A stretch of DNA of 12,061 nucleotides from a virus (IMGVR_UViG_2648501669_000026), one strand, 5' to 3'; positions 1,485 through 12,061 are shown, numbered from the stretch's first letter. The notes: a model not told the origin generated them from the sequence alone. Program-made: numbers and translations.

Positions 1485-2360
1485 ATGGAAAACACAATCA
1501 CGGTATTAACACCCGTTTTTAAAAACTGCCCGGAAATGACCACGATTGCATCGTGGCCCCGTAGTTTTGTATATCAAAAGGGACAATCTGAAGTCTCTTT
1601 GGTTATTCGTCTGATTGATATCATTGCATCAAAATACATGCACAGACACGCCGAGGAATATTGCGATATTACAGGGTATTGCCTGCCGTTAGTGCATAAA
1701 ATCAGTGATGAAGAGATGCGGGATATTGCGGAAGGTTGCGATATTGCCATTACACGCATCCGGCAAAAAATCCGCGAAGCAGAAAATAAAGTGACTGCTC
1801 AGGAAAATAAAATCAGCGAATTGCGTAACGCTCAGTTACAGCCCACGTGTGCTGATAACCCTTATGGTGATCGGTATTCAGTAAAAGACGTTATCGAGCA
1901 TGAAATGCGTCTGCTTGAAAATGAGAAACGGAATTGCGAAAAGACACGCGCTGTCTGTGAGCAGGCTATACGCCTTATTGGTACGGGGAAAAACCTTTCT
2001 CATGATGGCGGTAATGCGTGGATTTTTGCCGCTTCGTTTGACGGACTGGAGCCGGAAACAAATCGCCGTATCAATATTTATAAAGAGATTATTTCGGCTG
2101 TCAGTGCGATCGTCACTTTACGCAATGAAGAAATTAAGCACATTCCTTATTCAGTAATGGCTAAATACAACCATTTACGGCAGGAATATATTAATGATGC
2201 ATTACGTACTCTGACGAAGCATTATTACAGCAACGGCAGTGAAACCATCCGCCATGCGATGACGCTACAGGAATACACCGGAATAAGTATGCCACGAATT
2301 GAACGGGATGCGGCGACCGCTTTGCTGTCTGTACATACCGAAAAGAAAGATATTGTTTAA
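1485..2360 (+). CDS. Hypothetical 291-aa protein with a central coiled-coil; capsid-scaffold-like only by position and size
   Basis: ATG 1485 lies 5 nt after the alpA stop, with GGAG 8 nt upstream. Heptad-like charged segment IRQKIREAENKVTAQENKISELRNAQLQ. No family recognised; it does not match my recollection of P2 GpO. Confidence 0.55.
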   Translation: MENTITVLTPVFKNCPEMTTIASWPRSFVYQKGQSEVSLVIRLIDIIASKYMHRHAEEYCDITGYCLPLVHKISDEEMRDIAEGCDIAITRIRQKIREAENKVTAQENKISELRNAQLQPTCADNPYGDRYSVKDVIEHEMRLLENEKRNCEKTRAVCEQAIRLIGTGKNLSHDGGNAWIFAASFDGLEPETNRRINIYKEIISAVSAIVTLRNEEIKHIPYSVMAKYNHLRQEYINDALRTLTKHYYSNGSETIRHAMTLQEYTGISMPRIERDAATALLSVHTEKKDIV

Positions 2361-2370
2361 GGGGAAATGT

Positions 2371-3423
2371 ATGTTTTTTAATATTAATGACCTGAAAGAT
2401 AAAGCCGGAAGCGTGCTTGAAAATATCAATATTTCATCTCCAGCGGTGAACGAAAATGAAACTGACATTAATAGCGCGCTTGCAGAAAAAGATCTTTACG
2501 CACGCATCAGTGCATACACACAAAAAAATCCGTTTGTGCATTTTATTTCGCCCTCTAACTGGCTTTCCGGGCAAATAAAATACCTGTCAGTTAATCCGCA
2601 TCAGTCCGCTATTAACCTTATTGGGGATGCGCGCTTATCCACCGGACGCGCAGAGGAAGGACGCTTTAGCCGTGCCATGGATATTAAAGGCTCTCCGATT
2701 GAATGCTATGAGATGGACTCATGCGAATATCTCGACTGGATTAACTTGGTTGTGATGGCCAATGTGGCGAATGACGACAAAAACCGCGATGCACTGCTGG
2801 GGATTTTGTGTGGCTATCTGACCAGCAAAATTTATCTGGACGATCTGCGGATTGGCTTTAACGGCAAGTCAGCGGCAACCTTCACCACACCGGACACCAA
2901 CCCGAACGGCGAGGATGTTGCGCCCGGCTGGCATGAAATTGCCAGGAAGGCAAGCGAAGGACGACAGATTATCAGCGATGCCATTACGCTGGGCGCAGGT
3001 GGTGATTTTCCGGGGGTAGATGCACTGGCGCAGCATCTGATTAAAACGAAAATTGCCGCACAGTGGCAGAACGATCCACGCCTTGTGGTGATGGTGGGAT
3101 CAGAACTTGCAGCTGCCGAACGTCTGCGTCTTTTCAGCACCGCAAACGGCGCAGGAGATACCGAAGCCGCCAGCGCATGGGGAAGCACCATTGCCGGGCA
3201 TTTTGCCTTTGTGCCACCGTTTATGCCGGGTAAACGTCTGGCTGTGACCACACTCCCGAACCTGCTGATTAACATCATTGAAGGCTCTTACCGCACAGAG
3301 TTCGATATGAACAAAGACACCAAACGCCTGAACATGCGGGCATGGCGTCATCAGGGCTACGGGCTGGCGGATGTGAATCTTTACGCGGCAGTGGATGAGG
3401 GCGCGATTACGCTTAATCCGTGA
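2371..3423 (+). CDS. Putative P2 GpN-family major capsid-like protein (tentative)
   Basis: ATG 2371 with AAGGGG 5-6 nt upstream; the ORF-track start at 2299 overlaps the preceding gene and is rejected. Collinear motifs GFNG, NP-x3-DVAPGW, GAGGDFPGVDAL and DPRLVVMVGSEL match P2 GpN as I recall it (GFNG, DVAVGW, GKGGDYASLDAL, DPDLVVIVGRQL). Size 350 aa versus 357 aa for GpN. Based on memory only. Confidence 0.55.
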   Translation: MFFNINDLKDKAGSVLENINISSPAVNENETDINSALAEKDLYARISAYTQKNPFVHFISPSNWLSGQIKYLSVNPHQSAINLIGDARLSTGRAEEGRFSRAMDIKGSPIECYEMDSCEYLDWINLVVMANVANDDKNRDALLGILCGYLTSKIYLDDLRIGFNGKSAATFTTPDTNPNGEDVAPGWHEIARKASEGRQIISDAITLGAGGDFPGVDALAQHLIKTKIAAQWQNDPRLVVMVGSELAAAERLRLFSTANGAGDTEAASAWGSTIAGHFAFVPPFMPGKRLAVTTLPNLLINIIEGSYRTEFDMNKDTKRLNMRAWRHQGYGLADVNLYAAVDEGAITLNP

Positions 3424-3440
3424 TGGCTGGATAAGAAAAC

Positions 3441-3460
3441 GGCCCGCAAGATGGCGGGCC
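3441..3460. terminator. GC-rich hairpin after the capsid-like gene, looks bidirectional
   Basis: GGCCCGC (3441..3447), 6-nt loop, GCGGGCC (3454..3460), 18 nt past the stop. A-rich upstream and no T-run downstream on +, so the U-tract is on the - strand side. Confidence 0.35.
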
Positions 3461-3574
3461 GCTAACCACAAAAGGAAAAATCTACGAATCTACAGTTCGG
3501 GAATGATTATGAACTTTTTACGTACAGAAATCAATCACTCAGCGCAATCACGCAAAAATAATTTGCAATATTAC

Positions 3575-3604
3575 TTGACTCGCTTTTTTGTCATGGCGTA
3601 TCGT
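3575..3604 (+). promoter_or_regulatory. Candidate sigma70-type promoter for the early operon
   Basis: TTGACT (3575..3580), 18-bp spacer, TATCGT (3599..3604). Paired AATCAC half-sites lie just upstream (3530..3550). Sequence-only prediction. Confidence 0.3.
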
Positions 3605-3633
3605 TTGCCCGCACCTCATAAAGCGGGTGCCGG

Positions 3634-3817
3634 GTTTGACAGCCTGATTGTTAGAGCGGGTAGCCGCTATATTTCCGTAATGCGGTTTTTTTGTGCCCGT
3701 AATTCCACCCTACCCCGTATTATGGCGGGGCGTAATGGGGGAGCCTTTGCGCTCGCTGGTTTCTCTAACGCCAGTCTGTCAACCCTGTTACGTCCCGCCA
3801 CCATGTTTGACAGCGTG
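3634..3817 (+). promoter_or_regulatory. Untranslated leader with a 13-bp repeat triplet, P4 seqA/seqB/seqC-like
   Basis: GTTTGACAGCCTG (3634..3646) and GTTTGACAGCGTG (3805..3817) are direct repeats, 12/13 identical. CAGTCTGTCAACC (3772..3784) is an imperfect inverted copy (11/13 pairing). A short hairpin plus T7 run sits at 3680..3700. No SD-supported ORF between 3465 and 3856. Confidence 0.3.
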
Positions 3818-3856
3818 CTGGCGAGACTCCGTAAATCAGTTAGAGGAGCCGCCAAA

Positions 3857-4030
3857 ATGGCTATATCAACACGCCCTGATTTTATCTGGCGCTTTATGCA
3901 GTGCCACGGTAAAAATATTCGCCTTCATACCGTTACCGCTGCCAGTGAGCGCGAAGCGCGCGCCATGCTTCCGGCATCCCGTCTGGTCTTTGTTGCCCGT
4001 ATCCGTGTCCGGGAGGCGTGCCATGTTTAA
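3857..4030 (+). CDS. Small 57-aa protein, candidate Icd-like (host cell division inhibitor-like) family
   Basis: ATG 3857 with GAGGAG 8 nt upstream. The segment FIWRF...VTAASEREARAMLP...LVFVARIRV resembles the Icd-like small proteins I recall from P4-type prophages. The ORF-track extension back to 3395 overlaps the upstream gene and hairpin and has no SD. Confidence 0.5.
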   Translation: MAISTRPDFIWRFMQCHGKNIRLHTVTAASEREARAMLPASRLVFVARIRVREACHV

Positions 4031-4211
4031 GCTCCTTATCACCCTGATTAACTGCCAGAACGGCGACGTTCGCCAGTTTGTTCATGCCGAGGAATACCCG
4101 ACCTGTGATGATGCGTTGCGTGCTGCCCGTCGCATGGAGTACACCCGCGCCAACAAACAGGGGAAATTAACCCACAAATGCACGGTAAACATTATGGAAA
4201 TGGAGGGGTAA
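4023..4211 (+). CDS. Hypothetical small protein (62 aa)
   Basis: ATG 4023 overlaps the upstream stop (ATGTTTAA), with GGGAGG 6 nt upstream. It is the SD-supported C-terminal part of ORF-track frame 3693..4211. Confidence 0.5.
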   Translation: MFKLLITLINCQNGDVRQFVHAEEYPTCDDALRAARRMEYTRANKQGKLTHKCTVNIMEMEG

Positions 4212-4213
4212 CA

Positions 4214-4402
4214 ATGTACGAAATTCATATTAAATTGTGTAATGTGATTACGGGAGAAGAAGCAAACTATCGCGCGCCACTTAAATATAAATCGAGAAAA
4301 GAAGCGGCAATTGATGTATTCAGGTATGCAGAAGAAATTTCATCTAAATACCAGGGAGCAGAAGAAGAACTCACAGTATCAGCGGTGGAGGCAGAGCAAT
4401 GA
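4214..4402 (+). CDS. Hypothetical small acidic protein (62 aa), AT-rich
   Basis: ATG 4214 with GGAGGGG 5 nt upstream. About 35-40% GC by hand count. Stop overlaps the next start (ATGA at 4399..4402). Confidence 0.5.
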   Translation: MYEIHIKLCNVITGEEANYRAPLKYKSRKEAAIDVFRYAEEISSKYQGAEEELTVSAVEAEQ

Positions 4403-4617
4403 AAACCCGTTCAACATCCCGTAAAAATAATGGCAGTGGTGAAAAACGTTTCTTTGTGCTGGGTTATGCCGTTAATAAGCGCGGGTTAACCAAACATGCA
4501 CATGCAACGGTATACGGAACGGGGCCGGGCGAAGCCATACGCCGCGCAGCCGAAGGACTGGAAGAGCTGGGAATGACACATTTCAGGGCGTTGAAGGTTA
4601 CGCAGCTTTCTGCCTGA
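4399..4617 (+). CDS. Hypothetical small basic protein (72 aa)
   Basis: ATG 4399 with GGTGGAGG 7 nt upstream; 4-nt overlap with the preceding ORF suggests translational coupling. Confidence 0.5.
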   Translation: MKTRSTSRKNNGSGEKRFFVLGYAVNKRGLTKHAHATVYGTGPGEAIRRAAEGLEELGMTHFRALKVTQLSA

Positions 4618-4684
4618 TTCCCGAATTACCAACTGATAACTGAATTCAATTTATATTTCGGCCTTAACGGTCGGGGAGTTTTTT

Positions 4685-4990
4685 ATGTCTGAAAATCAGA
4701 ATTACGCAAATCTTTTACATAAAGAATATGTTGGTTTTTTTACAGAGGATGCAAAAGAAGATCTCACAGATGTAATTAGTCTCGTCAACCTTATATCTAT
4801 CATGTTTGATGAAAGAAGCTGCGGAGTGGGTGCAGAAATTACCAATAAAGATATTACATCTCTGTCTAATATTATTAGTCGGGAATTACAATCAATAAAA
4901 TCAGGTATGCATCTTTCTGGCGGCATTTTTTCATGGCGTCAGGCTGAAGCAGCAGGGATTGCCCGGAAACAAGAAGTAACGAGTAATTAA
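4685..4990 (+). CDS. Hypothetical 101-aa protein, AT-rich cargo-like gene just upstream of the primase
   Basis: ATG 4685 with GGGGAG 7 nt upstream. About 25-37% GC versus about 50% in flanking genes. No recognisable motif. The - strand ORF 4702..4926 overlapping it is treated as antisense artefact. Confidence 0.55.
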   Translation: MSENQNYANLLHKEYVGFFTEDAKEDLTDVISLVNLISIMFDERSCGVGAEITNKDITSLSNIISRELQSIKSGMHLSGGIFSWRQAEAAGIARKQEVTSN

Positions 4991-4996
4991 TAAAAG

Positions 4997-5019
4997 CCCA
5001 CTGCAAAAGGTGCAGTGGG
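4997..5019 (+). terminator. Stable hairpin between the 101-aa ORF and the primase start; weak terminator or translational control element
   Basis: CCCACTGCA (4997..5005), loop AAAGG, TGCAGTGGG (5011..5019), a 9-bp perfect stem. No T-run downstream on +; the 3' arm abuts the primase SD GGAGGG (5020..5025). Confidence 0.3.
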
Positions 5020-5032
5020 GAGGGATTTATAT

Positions 5033-7702
5033 ATGAAACATAACACCAGAAAAGAGATTATTAACCGTCTTATTCGTGATTACAACTTTAAAGAAGAAAA
5101 TAATTATCTTCGCTATGGTGTTTGTCCGCAATGTGGAAAGAAGGAACTGTTTACCAGTCTTGAGAGGCCGTACATCGTACACTGTGGCCGCGAAAATAAA
5201 TGCGGTGCAGACCTGCTGACCAAAGAACTTTACCCGGATGTGTTTTCGTCATGGTCAGATCGCTATATCAGTACGAAAGACGATCCATACGCAGCGGCGG
5301 TAGCTTATCTTCAGGAGGCGCGCAATATTGCTGTGGAGCCACTGAAAGGGGCATTTACTCAGGAGCGATACCAGGACAAGGAAAGCGGCGAACAGGCCGC
5401 TACTGTGCGTTTTACGCTGGCTGACGGCGTGTGGTGGGAGCGCATCATAGACCGACCGGAACGCTTCGCTCGCAAGGCGAATTTTTCCGGCAGTTACAAG
5501 GGGCTGTGGTGGGCTTATCCGGGAGCGGATTTAAGCAAGGCCAAAGAAATCTGGATTTGTGAGGGTATCTTTGATGCCATCAGCCTTAACCAGAATGGCA
5601 TTGCGGCCGTTTCTGTCATGTCTGCCGTGAACTACCCTGATAAATCGCTGGAAGAACTGGCGAAGCTGTGCGGGGATAATCCACGCCCGGTTATCGTGTG
5701 GGCGCTGGATAACGGGCGTGCGGGTGAGCGTTACGCGAAAAAACATGCAGAACGCAGCGCCGAAGACGGCTGGAGAACGGCGGCAGCATTACCAGGTAAA
5801 AACAGCAATAAACGCGACTGGAATGATTTACACATCGCCGGAAAGCTGCGTGGCCATGATGTGAAAAGATATCGTTATTACGGTGATTTATTGTTGGCGA
5901 AATCGCCGAGAGATAAGGCACTAATAATGTTTTCCTTTCGTGAGCGAAAGGAGTTTTATTTTCCCTTTGATAACCGTATTTTCTGGTTCAAGCTGGATAT
6001 TGAGCGCCATATGAAGGCTGTTGAGCGTGTCATTAATGAGCGAAATGTTGACGAAAATGAAGCGCGCAAAATTGCACTTAAGGAATCCGGTGCAGTAAAA
6101 GAAATCGCAAACTGTAACCCAGTACCGCTTTATTACATTCGAAACAATGACACGGATGAAGCATGGTATTACTTCCGTGTTACGTTCCCGGATGGTGCGA
6201 CGGTGAAAAACACCTTTACATCAGGTCAATTAACATCCGCATCTGAATTTAAAAAACGCCTGTTGCATGTGGCAAAAGGTGGTATTTATACCGGAACGAC
6301 TGCGCACCTTGATGCATTAATAAAAAATGACCTTCCCGCAATAAAAAATGTTATCGGTCAGGATTTTATCGGATACAACAAAGAGATTGGCGCATGGCTG
6401 TTTAATGATGTCGCGGTTTGTAATGGTAAAACCTACGAAATCAATGAAGAGGATTATTTTGAAATTGATGGCATAAACGCAAAACCATTGAATAAAAAAC
6501 CAATATTGCAGATTAACTATAAAAAACCGGATGAATTTACAACGTCCTGGGTGGAAGATCTCTGGCTGGCGTTTGGTGAAAAGGGAATTATTACCCTGGC
6601 CTTCTGGCTGGGTTCGTTGTTCAGCGAACAAATCAGGCAGAAAAACGCATCTTACCCCTTTCTTGAGATTACCGGAGAGCCTGGAACGGGTAAAACAACG
6701 CTGATTGATTTTTGCTGGCGTTTGTGTGGCCGTGACAACTATGAAGGTGTTGATCCAACCAAAGGATCGGAATCAGGCTGGAAGCGAACTTTTGGACAGG
6801 TCGCCGGATTACCTGTTGTTCTGATTGAGGCAGACCGGGGGGACAATGCGCAAAAAAGAGGTGCGTTTGACTTTGATAACCTGAAAAGCCTCTATAACGG
6901 CGGTGGTATTGGGGTACGTGGTGTTAAAACTAATGATAACGCCACATATGACCCTGTTTTTAAAGGGGCTGTCGTGATTGCGCAGAATGCCACGGTAAAT
7001 GCCTCATCGGCAATTATCGAGCGTCTGGTACGTATATACACCGATAAAAAACGCCACTCACCAGATAGCCGACTGGCAGCAAAACGGCTGGAGCTTTACC
7101 CCGTTGAGCAGGTATCAGGTTTTATCCATCGGGCAGTAAGCCAGGAGCGGGCGATTATGGATTTGTTTATGGCACTCTCGGATCCTGAAACAGCCCGCCT
7201 TTACAGTTGCGAAAATATTCGCCATCAGCGTATTGCCAAAAATCACGCGCAACTAATTGCACTGGTCAGGGTGCTGAAATGCGTTATTGATATCCCGGAT
7301 GAATGGCTTGATGCCACATGTCTGGAACTGGAGCGAATGGCAGAGGAACAGGCTAAAGCGGTAATGGATGACTTGCCGGAAGTGATGGCGTTCTGGGAGG
7401 CGTTCGACTATCTGGACGGCATAACAGCATACGGCGTAAATCATTTTGGCAAGGGACGGCAGAATGAGTTTGCCGTCAGTATCCCGCAACTTGAGCAGGT
7501 TGCCGCCGTTCACCATGTGAAGATCCAAACCAATCCCGAAATGATAAAGCTTCTCAAGGCTGGCCGTTCTCGATCGCTGATTGGATACAAGCCCGTCCGT
7601 AGCGAGGTATCCAGACAGGCGAACGCCGGGAGGGGGATAGCCGAGGCCAGAGAGAAGGAGGTATTGAAATGCTGGATATTTAGTAACAAGGAGGGGGCTT
7701 AA
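5033..7702 (+). CDS. Bifunctional DNA primase/helicase (N-terminal zinc ribbon, TOPRIM primase, P-loop NTPase), P4 alpha-like replication protein
   Basis: ATG 5033 with GGAGGG 8 nt upstream; the ORF-track GTG at 5015 lies inside the hairpin. Zinc ribbon CPQCG...HCGRENKCG. TOPRIM motifs WICEGIFDAISL and VWALDNGRAGERYA. Walker A GEPGTGKTT and Walker B-like VVLIEAD. 889 aa. Confidence 0.9.
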   Translation: MKHNTRKEIINRLIRDYNFKEENNYLRYGVCPQCGKKELFTSLERPYIVHCGRENKCGADLLTKELYPDVFSSWSDRYISTKDDPYAAAVAYLQEARNIAVEPLKGAFTQERYQDKESGEQAATVRFTLADGVWWERIIDRPERFARKANFSGSYKGLWWAYPGADLSKAKEIWICEGIFDAISLNQNGIAAVSVMSAVNYPDKSLEELAKLCGDNPRPVIVWALDNGRAGERYAKKHAERSAEDGWRTAAALPGKNSNKRDWNDLHIAGKLRGHDVKRYRYYGDLLLAKSPRDKALIMFSFRERKEFYFPFDNRIFWFKLDIERHMKAVERVINERNVDENEARKIALKESGAVKEIANCNPVPLYYIRNNDTDEAWYYFRVTFPDGATVKNTFTSGQLTSASEFKKRLLHVAKGGIYTGTTAHLDALIKNDLPAIKNVIGQDFIGYNKEIGAWLFNDVAVCNGKTYEINEEDYFEIDGINAKPLNKKPILQINYKKPDEFTTSWVEDLWLAFGEKGIITLAFWLGSLFSEQIRQKNASYPFLEITGEPGTGKTTLIDFCWRLCGRDNYEGVDPTKGSESGWKRTFGQVAGLPVVLIEADRGDNAQKRGAFDFDNLKSLYNGGGIGVRGVKTNDNATYDPVFKGAVVIAQNATVNASSAIIERLVRIYTDKKRHSPDSRLAAKRLELYPVEQVSGFIHRAVSQERAIMDLFMALSDPETARLYSCENIRHQRIAKNHAQLIALVRVLKCVIDIPDEWLDATCLELERMAEEQAKAVMDDLPEVMAFWEAFDYLDGITAYGVNHFGKGRQNEFAVSIPQLEQVAAVHHVKIQTNPEMIKLLKAGRSRSLIGYKPVRSEVSRQANAGRGIAEAREKEVLKCWIFSNKEGA

Positions 7703-7704
7703 GT

Positions 7705-8706
7705 ATGTCGATCAGAAAGATGGATGATGGGCGATGGCTGCTCGATATCAGGCCACAAGGGGCGTACGGCAAACGGATACGTAAAATTTTTGTCAGGAAA
7801 GGGAGTGCAGAGGCCTTCGAACAATATATTTTACAGAATTTCCATAACAACCCATGGCTGGCTAAACCTGCTGATCGGCGGCGATTATCAGAGCTGCTTG
7901 ATACATGGTGGATGCTTGATGGCCGTAACCAGGCTTACGGCGATACCTACAGGATCCGGCTGGAGAAAGTGATTCGTGAAATGGGAGATCCGCGCGCCAG
8001 CCAGATGACGCAAAAATTTATGCTTGAGTATCGGTCAGAGAAATTACAGGCCGGCTTAATGCCATCCAGCATTAATCGTGACTTGTGCGTTCTGTCTACC
8101 ATGTTCACGGTGCTGATTGAAGCAGGGGTCTTTCACAACCCGAACCCTGTGCGCAGTATACGCAAGCTAAAAATTCAGAATACAGAGATGGCCTTTCTTT
8201 CTGATGATGAGATTGAACGGCTTCTTGAGCGACTGGAGGGGGATGCGCGTCGTGTTGCCATTCTGTGTCTTTCTACTGGTGCCCGATGGAGTGAAGCATC
8301 GGAACTACGTGGAGAGCATATCGTTGGCAACCGTGTGACGTTTTTTAACACCAAAAACGGAAAATCCCGCTCGGTTCCTGTGGCGGATTCGGTCGTGCCG
8401 CTGATTAAAACCCGTCGGACGGGGTTGTTGTATCAGGTTGATTATCTGGAGTTCCGGGAGATTCTTCAGGAGGTTAAGCCGGATTTGCCGAAGGGGCAGG
8501 CTACGCATGTTATGCGTCATACATTTGCCACACACTTTATGATGAATGGTGGGAATATCGTTACATTACAACGGATTCTTGGACATGCGACTATCCAGCA
8601 AACGATGACTTATGCGCATTTTTCTCCCGACTATCTGGCGGATGCCATGAGGTTTAACCCGATAGCTAACATGGCATTCACTGAACAAAAAGAGCCAGCA
8701 GAGTAA
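7705..8706 (+). CDS. int: Tyrosine recombinase / integrase, P2 Int-like
   Basis: 333 aa. Catalytic-domain motifs AILCLSTGARWSEA, HVMRHTFATHFM and LGHATIQQTMTYAHF; N-terminal DGRWLLDIRPQG...GKRIRK. Close to P2 Int in length and motifs as I recall it. ATG is 2 nt after the primase stop and shares the SD AAGGAGGGGG. Confidence 0.92.
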   Translation: MSIRKMDDGRWLLDIRPQGAYGKRIRKIFVRKGSAEAFEQYILQNFHNNPWLAKPADRRRLSELLDTWWMLDGRNQAYGDTYRIRLEKVIREMGDPRASQMTQKFMLEYRSEKLQAGLMPSSINRDLCVLSTMFTVLIEAGVFHNPNPVRSIRKLKIQNTEMAFLSDDEIERLLERLEGDARRVAILCLSTGARWSEASELRGEHIVGNRVTFFNTKNGKSRSVPVADSVVPLIKTRRTGLLYQVDYLEFREILQEVKPDLPKGQATHVMRHTFATHFMMNGGNIVTLQRILGHATIQQTMTYAHFSPDYLADAMRFNPIANMAFTEQKEPAE

Positions 8707-9415: not shown

Positions 9416-9670
9416 GTGCGCAGACAGAAAGCGCGGTGTTTTTGCTGTGGTGAGCGCGCAGTGATTGAAAAGACCGTCTGGAAAGATGATCGGTTTGCTG
9501 ACGTGTATTACCGTTGCAAGCGTCTTGAGTGCGGACATACCTGGGTAATGAATCTGACCTACTCGCACACGCTGACCCCCAGCGGACTGGAGAACGGCGT
9601 GTTGAAGCTGTTGATCGAACGAATGCGCCCGGAGGAAAAACAAATGGCGCTGGAACTACTACAGGCCTGA
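9416..9670 (+). CDS. Ogr/Delta-family zinc-finger transcriptional activator-like protein
   Basis: GTG 9416 with GAGGTG 5 nt upstream. C-x2-C, 22 residues, C-x4-C (CFCCGERA...CKRLEC), the same cysteine spacing as P2 Ogr as I recall it. 84 aa. Confidence 0.7.
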   Translation: MRRQKARCFCCGERAVIEKTVWKDDRFADVYYRCKRLECGHTWVMNLTYSHTLTPSGLENGVLKLLIERMRPEEKQMALELLQA

Positions 9671-11277: not shown

Positions 11278-11524
11278 CTTTGTTTAATCCTGTTGATTGG
11301 TTGTCGACGTTGCGACCTGGCTGAATCATAACAGTGAGTAGAGCGGGCGCAAGTTGGTGTGAGGTGACACATAAGGTACAATTTGCGGCCTTAAAGTGTT
11401 CTCATGTGTTCTGGTGTTGTCTGCCTGCGATATTGTTTTGTGTATCAATTGGTGTATCAATATCGATATTTGCAGAGAATTAAAACGAAATTAAATTCAC
11501 TGAAATCAATGTGATAGGTTATTG

Positions 11525-12061
11525 ATGAAACATTATGTAGAAGTAATGATCCCCGAAGCGGAGATTAAAGCGCGTATCGCCGAACTGGGTCGTCAGATTA
11601 CTGAGCGTTACAAAGACAGCGGCAGCGATATGGTGCTGGTGGGTCTGCTGCGTGGCTCATTTATGTTTATGGCGGACCTGTGCCGTGAAGTTCAGGTATC
11701 TCATGAAGTCGACTTTATGACCGCCTCCAGCTACGGTAGCGGCATGTCCACCACCCGTGATGTGAAAATCCTCAAAGATCTGGATGAAGATATCCGTGGC
11801 AAGGACGTGCTGATTGTTGAAGATATCATCGACTCGGGGAATACACTGTCGAAAGTGCGTGAGATCTTAAGCCTGCGCGAACCGAAGTCGCTGGCGATTT
11901 GTACGCTGCTGGATAAACCGTCCCGTCGTGAAGTGAACGTCCCGGTAGAATTTATCGGTTTCTCGATCCCGGATGAGTTTGTGGTGGGTTACGGCATTGA
12001 TTACGCACAGCGTTACCGTCATCTGCCGTATATCGGCAAAGTGATTCTGCTGGACGAGTAA
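11525..12061 (+). CDS. hpt: Hypoxanthine phosphoribosyltransferase
   Basis: The protein [52 protein letters not shown]...[17 protein letters not shown]...GKVILLDE is near-identical to E. coli Hpt as I recall it, including the PRTase motif [16 protein letters not shown] 11525; the ORF-track start at 11522 is TTG. Stop at the window end. Confidence 0.95.

Follow-up and report, generated by a model that had tools for sequence, protein, structure and literature searches.

The C4/CI immunity system first became known through work on P1, P7 and P4 in the 1990s. The C4 and isrK motifs go back to Weinberg et al. 2010 (PMC2864571), and an earlier account lists P4-like satellites, P1, P7, N15 and some lambdoid prophages as carriers of an IsrK-C4 system (PMC3632133). 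C4 of P1 represses icd-ant (PMC8198154), and P1 and P7 form a classical heteroimmune pair (PMC6906374). For P1 C4 and P4 CI alike, RNase P is known to release a stable RNA, about 77 nt long, from a longer precursor (PMC5499578). In P4, CI, seqA and seqC work by termination, and eta and kil are nested genes (PMC4825925, PMC10111431); late transcripts are reported to escape immunity termination when eta is translated from them (PMC10111431).

The IsrK-STnc1160-orf45-anrP region of Gifsy-1 in Salmonella (RF01394) combines a short terminated leader, read-through and a processed RNA of about 80 nt, STnc1160, which lies downstream of IsrK and is complementary to it (PMC4825925). A small ORF there gates the downstream effector by translational coupling, and the short IsrK RNA is reported to activate translation of orf45-anrP in trans (PMC4825925). 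Satellites that integrate at hpt form one of the subfamilies described among PICIs of the Gram-negative type; Rfam C4 and isrK matches have been published for Gram-negative PICIs, and Mageeney et al. 2023 read the matches in several of them as immunity RNAs (PMC10111431).

Here we analyze a 12,061-nt stretch of viral DNA (IMGVR_UViG_2648501669_000026; hereafter the window), in which an earlier prediction, made from the sequence alone, had proposed an RNA switch resembling P4 immunity between a capsid-like gene and an operon of small ORFs. We describe to which family this region belongs and how its RNA folds, show that its two pairings covary and that one target overlaps the SD, trace the gene order, and conclude that it is very probably a functional C4/CI-family antisense immunity module. 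In our reading it provides the immunity of a P2-type helper-dependent satellite that has integrated next to hpt. The device is one more ordinary copy of its kind, set apart by its own recognition code, a private specificity allele. The mechanism is not new: P4-like satellites, P1, P7, N15 and Gram-negative PICIs have all been reported to carry the module. The original prediction had held the elements to be new for this type of island; C4 and isrK matches were already published in Gram-negative PICIs and P4-like satellites (PMC10111431, PMC3632133), and we therefore regard the region as a further example of a known device. What is new is the b' allele peculiar to it, found in a narrowly distributed Escherichia satellite clade.

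Results and discussion

Organization of the locus

The features of the window are collected in Table 1. The interval between the capsid gene and the icd-like ORF, thought to be a noncoding gap of about 390 bp, measures 433 nt, the capsid gene stopping at 3423 and the icd-like ORF starting with its ATG at 3857. The island carries an AlpA-like regulator, a 291-aa ORF, a P2-family capsid gene, the immunity region, four small ORFs and a primase, and its integrase is followed by an Ogr/Delta zinc-finger protein. Searches of Pfam, PHROGs and NCBIfam returned no match for the four small ORFs (4023-4990), the 291-aa ORF or a 346-aa ORF. Recognizable sid and psu are absent within the window; the island has its own capsid gene. 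The co-oriented operon 4023..8706 is presumed to be under C4 control, and the gene order C4-icd-small ORFs-primase-integrase is kept in 7 related loci.

Table 1. Features of the immunity region and its surroundings, in window coordinates
Feature	Position	Strand	Evidence or remark
P2-family capsid gene	2299-3423		Pfam Phage_cap_P2
Long ORF in icd frame, 173 aa	3509..4030	+	conserved ATG at 3509; frame open from 3395
Sigma-70 promoter	TTGACT (3575-3580), 18-nt spacer, TATCGT (3599-3604)	+	consensus scan, 9/12
IsrK/SeqA-like leader RNA	3611..3692	+	RF01394 isrK, below gathering score
Leader hairpin 1	3611-3630	+
Leader hairpin 2	3631-3646	+	a1 in loop; followed by single-stranded b1 and a weak intrinsic terminator
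a1 target TTGACAG	3636..3642	+	core of first direct repeat; 7/7 to a'; aligns with P1 a1
b1 target GTTAGAG	3650..3656	+	7/7 complementary to b'
Terminator-like element	3662..3692	+	Rfam isrK alignment helix; MFE fold
C4/CI antisense RNA gene	3718..3805	+	Rfam RF01695; mature form ~3724-3802 (79 nt)
b' CUCUAAC, loop of C4 hairpin 2	3763..3769	+	unpaired in MFE and Rfam consensus
a' CUGUCAA, inverted copy	3776..3782	+	single-stranded joint in MFE and Rfam structure
a2 target TTGACAG	3807..3813	+	core of second direct repeat; 7/7 to a'; aligns with P1 a2
b2 target GTTAGAG	3839..3845	+	7/7 to b'; runs into SD AGGAG (3844-3848)
57-aa Icd/Kil-like ORF	3857..4030	+	NF033153, P1 Icd homology; first gene of the operon presumed to be controlled
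Small ORFs	4023-4211, 4178-4402, 4399-4617, 4685-4990	+	ORF list
Primase, 895 aa	5015-7702	+	Toprim domains; phrog_1139 DNA primase
Tyrosine integrase, 333 aa	7705-8706	+	integrase domains
hpt	11522-12061		island adjoins hpt

Comparison with described immunity regions

Judged by sequence, the layout is that of P4, PLE-seqA-CI-seqC-kil/eta, and the nearest sequence is the c4-icd part of P1 immI. The window resembles P1/P7 immI (RF01695, RF03163) in 83.5% identity over the leader, C4 and the first target, in promoter position (P51b), RNA fold, the presence of two recognition elements, the order a1-b1-C4-a2-b2-icd and the placing of b2 at the icd ribosome binding site; the a' allele is the same as in P1, and in both systems a few bases set specificity. 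However, immI controls icd-ant1/2, whereas the window has no ant genes and carries four small ORFs, a primase and an integrase instead. The C1 operator (ATTGCTCTAATAAATTT) that P1-like loci carry upstream is absent from the satellites, the window included. Because C1 operator and ant gene are both missing, the c4-icd core heading a replication operon is the P4 arrangement and not the P1 immI operon. Further differences are a b' one base away from that of P1, with b1 and b2 matching, an icd frame that in the satellites, unlike in P1-like phages, continues without a stop far upstream, and the nature of the element itself, a chromosomal satellite as against a phage-plasmid.

In P4 the CI RNA (seqB) belongs to the same Rfam family, and seqA is matched by both isrK and c4-a1b1. 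By our own reading, P4 likewise has two site types, GTGAGAA and TTCACAGG, before and after CI, the second of them on the kil SD. Kil is Icd-like, a 198-aa eta ORF spans PLE, seqA, CI and kil, and the module heads the primase operon (cnr-alpha in P4) of a helper-dependent satellite. In contrast to these likenesses there is little primary sequence identity, with no P4 match in blastn; the primase is only distantly related to P4 alpha (21-32% identity in patches), and the eta-like ORF follows a P2-type capsid gene in the window but an alpA/vis homolog in P4.

Gifsy-1 shares a short terminated leader, read-through into a processed RNA of about 80 nt and the gating of downstream genes by a small ORF, all of which are predicted on the side of the window. 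It differs in that its short RNA is reported to activate and its effector is an antirepressor acting through an antiterminator (PMC4825925), whereas the effector in the window is the replication operon and the isrK score lies just below the family threshold. The hpt-integrated PICIs resemble the window in their AlpA, primase, integrase and captured late genes; their immunity RNAs lie inside Bro-network genes (PMC10111431), whereas the host ORF in the window is Icd/Eta-like, with no Bro domain detected.

An antisense RNA of the C4/CI family

An Rfam scan of the whole window returned a single above-threshold match, RF01695 at 3718-3805, which scores 72.8 bits (gathering score 45) with E 5.4e-13 and is full length (model positions 1-87). 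The positive controls, P4 CI RNA and P1 c4, scored 74.9 and 68.8 bits. Because the same Rfam model finds all three, we place P4 CI, P1 C4 and the window RNA in one family, and the likeness to a P4 CI-type immunity switch, put forward as an analogy, is one of homology. P4 was only in part the right model: the family is the same, but the nearest nucleotide relative is P1 c4, with 83.5% identity to P1 immI over 3630-3815, where the annotated P1 a1, b1, c4, a2, b2 and icd align with the window site for site. The small RNA had been expected at 3750..3820; the Rfam match begins well upstream of this, and the approximate mature extent in Table 1 was taken from the alignment with annotated P1 C4.

The RNA folds into a long closing stem round two hairpins; a loop presents b', and an unpaired joint holds a'. 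The MFE structure (-45 kcal/mol, z -6.0) agrees with the consensus. All 28 internal C4 pairs are 100% paired across 20 sequences, four of them with changes on both sides. The 3' end is tRNA-like, the closing stem being followed by ACCA at 3800-3803.

Promoter and leader RNA

The promoter-like sequence TTGACT-18-TATCGT of the original prediction was recovered by a consensus scan at 3575-3604. It aligns with the annotated -35/-10 elements of P1c4 in P1, is the counterpart of P1c4 (P51b) in P1 and of PLE in P4, and is identical in sequence in 7 related satellites.

With relaxed thresholds, isrK (RF01394) matched 3611-3692 over its full length (1-77) at 49.0 bits, marginally below the gathering score of 50 (E 1.7e-9), and c4-a1b1 (RF03163) matched 3598-3650 at 30.3 bits, below its gathering score of 46.7. 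In the controls isrK gave only 35.1 bits on the P1 leader and 60.8 on that of P4, while c4-a1b1 gave 44.1 bits on P4, also under 46.7. The complementarity of a1/b1 to C4, on which the function of c4-a1b1 depends, is present in the leader. It also has the isrK architecture: two 5' hairpins, the second with a target in its loop, then a predicted hairpin and U-run terminator. The hairpin and run of seven Ts noticed earlier are present (T7 at 3686-3692), and because the isrK and c4-a1b1 models match seqA in P4 and the a1/b1 leader in P1, we read them as the terminator end of an IsrK/SeqA-like leader. The stem is formed either by 3662-3667 and 3682-3687 (6 bp, 14-nt loop) or by a 4-bp mini-hairpin at 3675-3685, with T7 following. 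Neither its core, CCGC...GCGG, nor the T run varies among 20 sequences; a simple terminator scan made no call at the T7 hairpin, and we therefore consider the terminator weak. The MFE fold of the isolated leader differs from the Rfam isrK consensus, so the helices rest on covariation: they are 90-99% paired in the 20 sequences, and 5 of the 6 pairs of hairpin 1 have changed on both sides.

Recognition elements and their targets

The direct repeats at 3634-3646 (GTTTGACAGCCTG) and 3805-3817 (GTTTGACAGCGTG) are indeed identical at 12 of 13 positions, and they are part of a 22-nt repeat (3634-3655 and 3805-3826). The inverted copy between them (3772-3785) is 86% complementary over 14 nt. The earlier reservation that this complementarity is imperfect holds for the 14 nt but not for the functional core, TTGACAG/CTGTCAA, which pairs at 7 of 7 positions; such cores are found at two independent site pairs and covary fully. 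The three repeats are a1, a' and a2, bearing out the pairing of a seqB-like element with seqA-like and seqC-like sites. A second triplet, b1/b'/b2 (GTTAGAG/CUCUAAC), had been overlooked. At all four sites in the window the a and b elements are 7/7 Watson-Crick.

We scanned IMG/VR for the conserved C4 stems with the loops left free, which gave 116 usable loci, 44 of them distinct. As the loci were picked by the C4 core alone, the targets test the pairing independently. The stems hardly vary, while the b' loop occurs in 14 alleles and a' in three. Every one of the 116 loci has perfect reverse complements (at least 7 nt) of its own b' and a' at fixed offsets upstream and downstream, and a 15th b' allele, from an Escherichia sp. 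genome, has its targets matched likewise. Covariation across homologous islands had been suggested as a check; in an alignment of 20 allele combinations from phages and satellites (alignment A2) the pairings a'/a2, b'/b2, a'/a1 and b'/b1 are all 100% Watson-Crick. Of 7 positions each, 6 in b and 2 in a have changed on both sides, and none on one side only. Sliding the partner by 1-3 columns as a control left 28-54% paired, and none of 500 shuffles reached the observed covariation score. The mean predicted duplex energy is -19.4 kcal/mol for cognate and -8.2 kcal/mol for non-cognate pairs.

P1 and P7 differ by 2 bases in each element (2 + 2 nt), and a1/b1 are labeled 'putative' in the P1 record. 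The a' of the window is exactly that of P1. Its b' is private, one base from P1, with b1 and b2 changed to match, and it differs from the b' allele of the nearest island, that of E. coli A36, which is 92.5% identical.

The Icd/Kil-like ORF and the long ORF

The 57-aa ORF is 48% identical to P1 Icd (E 2e-14) and falls in NF033153 phage_ICD_like at 53.1 bits, the NCBIfam family that also holds P4 Kil and P1 Icd. BLASTP of this ORF against P4 Kil returned nothing, the relationship being visible only by the NCBIfam profile, and BLASTP of the long ORF against its P4 counterpart returned nothing either. The SD lies 8 nt ahead of the ATG and is overlapped by b2, and the ORF overlaps the next one as ATGTTTAA.

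The icd frame continues upstream as the long ORF, which covers the promoter, the leader, C4 and the targets, and whose 173-aa product is labeled 'Icd-like protein' by RefSeq in relatives. This frame runs without a stop for 118-160 or more codons ahead of icd in every one of the 10 satellite loci, whereas most P1-like phages have a stop 11 codons before icd (median; up to 110 codons in a few loci). Of the distinct stop triplets in the six variable sites, those in the icd frame number 0 of 18 in the satellite clade and 4 of 21 in the P1-like clade, counts in which the alleles are not fully independent. The open frame could be a by-product of the RNA constraints. It resembles P4 eta, and by that analogy it may be a bypass route for the immunity block.

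Distribution

The satellite-clade C4 core was found in one of 185,579 species-representative genomes and on 10 IMG/VR contigs; IMG/VR yielded no new clades with this satellite-specific core. Close copies of 3560-3860 occur in 86 of 5,426 complete E. coli genomes. Over this span E. coli CFSAN027346, FDAARGOS_1299 and E9 show 99.7% identity to the window. Among the 25 matches listed of these 86, only an 'Icd-like protein' CDS is annotated, and no RNA gene.

Proposed mechanism

We propose a chain of steps, from promoter to eta-like bypass, which we regard as reasonably probable as a whole and which takes RNA processing, the translational block, Rho polarity and the bypass by eta translation from P1, P4 and Gifsy-1. 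The constitutive promoter would start transcription near 3611, and the weak terminator at about 3692 would stop many transcripts, releasing an IsrK/SeqA-like RNA with a1 and b1. Transcripts that read through would include the C4/CI RNA, from which, as in P1 and P4, RNase P would excise the stable RNA of about 79 nt. Its b' and a' would then pair with b2 and a2 on the same or incoming transcripts, the b'/b2 duplex masking the ribosome binding site of the icd/kil-like ORF. With this ORF untranslated, Rho would terminate transcription and the small ORFs, primase and integrase would stay silent. Given the homology with P1 and P4, this is the most likely mechanism: the processed RNA would block icd/kil translation, and Rho-dependent polarity would silence the downstream genes. 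A superinfecting satellite with the same alleles would be repressed as well, and the a1/b1 sites of the leader may tune the switch as a second target or a decoy. For transcription coming in from the capsid operon upstream, ribosomes on the eta-like ORF would override the block.

Alternative explanations

The annotation suggests a simpler reading, in which the region only encodes the 173-aa 'Icd-like protein' and the repeats are protein or codon features. PGAP puts one CDS across it in all related E. coli genomes among the matches listed, and the frame is open in 10/10 satellites, with in-frame stops avoided. However, only the last 57 aa match Icd, the N-terminal 116 residues having no Pfam or NCBIfam match, and most P1-like phages have the same RNA elements where the icd frame is closed. 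The Rfam C4 score is well over threshold, and reverse-complementary co-changes at three separate sites are inexplicable by coding. This covariation contradicts coding as the sole explanation, which we consider very improbable; eta coding and RNA coexist in P4 (PMC10111431). That the repeats are functionless and arose by chance in an intergenic spacer of mixed AT/GC content, as the original prediction had allowed, has in its favor that 7-mers recur: by chance the window should hold TTGACAG 1.4 times, and at least three matches arose in 29 of 200 shuffles. Yet all three TTGACAG copies of the 12-kb window, and three of the four GTTAGAG copies (either orientation, complement CTCTAAC; 0.68 expected window-wide), fall within a single stretch of 180 nt. 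The Rfam E-value of 5e-13 and perfect three-way covariation over 15 alleles refute chance, to which we give practically no credence; the repeats are real.

Identity to P1 c4 (83.5%), with neither a downstream ant gene nor an upstream C1 operator, would also be expected of a decayed, non-functional fragment of a P1-like immI carried into the island. Such a fragment is hard to square with the fixed place that the module has in 7 related satellites at the head of the replication operon, where promoter, structure and targets are all intact, or with a satellite clade that has features of its own, namely a hairpin 1 longer by two bases and the long open frame. The alleles diversify while all three sites stay matched, and we therefore see ongoing selection. 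Conserved position, intact parts and matched alleles lead us to reject the dead fragment as very unlikely. A more serious alternative follows Gifsy-1 and makes the short leader RNA (3611-3692) the main regulator, acting in trans, with C4 merely its counterpart: the leader would sequester C4 through a1/b1 or remodel the read-through mRNA and so turn on translation of icd and the genes downstream. The full-length isrK match of the leader (49.0 bits), its perfect a1/b1 elements covarying with C4, the precedents of IsrK and STnc1160 in Gifsy-1 (PMC4825925) and the finding by TraDIS in S. Typhi that IsrK-like elements of P4-like prophages are required (PMC3632133) all speak for it. On the other side, P4 seqA is needed for establishing immunity, which is repression (PMC3632133), and the terminator is weak, which makes the amount of short leader RNA uncertain. 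Because a2/b2 covary equally well and b2 lies on the SD, activation of this kind would supplement the repression model and not replace it; as the main mode of control we find it possible but unlikely.

Implications

Under the C4-based repression that we prefer, the module is the master switch of a family of hpt-linked satellites bearing a P2 capsid, and its recognition as an RNA gene corrects the annotation of the region. We also considered whether the b' loop and its two co-changing targets form a fast-evolving immunity barcode, near-identical satellites being mutually non-immune, with an allele in the window that may cross-react with P1-type phage-plasmids. This is a speculative and rather improbable proposal. 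The predicted duplex energy of this allele on the P1 target (-15.3 kcal/mol) lies between the values for cognate pairs (-19) and for the heteroimmune P1/P7 pair (about -7.6). If cross-reaction occurs, the satellite could damp icd-ant expression of P1, and a resident P1 could keep the satellite replication operon off.

The interest of the locus is modest and lies in the breadth of loop alleles with three-way matching, the satellite-specific eta-like frame and the possible partial cross-reaction with P1. Fifteen loop alleles, each with two perfectly co-changed targets on a near-invariant scaffold, amount to a natural experiment in RNA-RNA specificity. Orthogonal antisense regulators could be designed with this allele set as a guide, and heteroimmunity among satellites and phages is predicted by it.

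An open frame across the immunity region

We identified a long open reading frame that shares its frame with icd, the 57-aa Icd/Kil-like ORF at window 3857-4030, and encompasses the region encoding the C4 antisense immunity RNA (see table). Upstream of icd this frame is open in all ten satellite loci (10/10); in most P1-like phages it is closed 11 codons upstream of icd. Stop triplets within variable sites fell in the long-ORF frame in 0 of 18 cases. The layout of the long ORF and icd mirrors that of eta and kil, the nested genes over the immunity region of P4. RefSeq gives the name "Icd-like protein" to the entire long ORF, and the RNA gene is annotated in none of the 25 matches listed.

Features of the island
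Feature	Window coordinates	Remarks
AlpA-like	1111-1479	
291-aa ORF		
P2-family capsid	2299-3423	
Long ORF, icd frame	3509-4030	Frame open from 3395; spans promoter, leader and C4 RNA
Primase		Upstream of tyrosine integrase
Second tyrosine integrase	7705-8706	Immediately 3' of primase
Ogr/Delta	9416-9670	
hpt	Right end	

Relatives of the island, including the E. coli A36 locus, carry another integrase at their left end together with a Hok/Gef gene, and the closest of them do not share the window's leftmost 1.1 kb, where the 346-aa ORF lies. Directly 3' of the capsid gene lies a G+C-rich 10-bp hairpin (3438-3463), which is not a classical terminator on the plus strand, as its T-rich tail is present on the minus strand only.

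Immediately 5' of the -35 box, CAATCAC(T/G)CA occurs twice as a direct repeat with 13 nt spacing (3532-3554), in a segment conserved across seven related satellites. P1 has a C1 operator at the corresponding site, whereas the satellites lack one; the repeat pair could be an operator for a regulator.

Variation among C4 loci

The second base of b', the C4 recognition loop (column 157 of the allele alignment, window 3764), is T in all satellite-clade alleles and always A or G in P1-like alleles, and no b' allele is common to the two clades. In satellites this T means that b2, the downstream target of the loop, ends in AG, which forms part of the Shine-Dalgarno sequence AGGAG.

Two IMG/VR contigs (L053:1792-2170 and L023:3389-3683) have a satellite-type C4 core followed by different downstream genes. 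The Icd-like ORF of L053 is 82 aa long and its frame stays open for all 642 codons to the contig end; the C4 RNA of this locus may be embedded in a considerably larger gene, possibly in the Bro-type arrangement described in PMC10111431. A 59.7-kb contig (IMGVR_UViG_2925820202_000009) matched the satellite C4 stem pattern with its loop region outside the parsed layout, and may have a variant hairpin-2 or a' layout.

Possible coupling of the small ORFs

The stop of the icd-like ORF and the start of the next overlap as ATGTTTAA (4023-4030), with GGGAGG 6 nt upstream, and later small ORFs likewise overlap or abut (4178/4211, 4399/4402). These overlaps suggest translational coupling along the operon which, if true, would propagate a block at icd down the operon.
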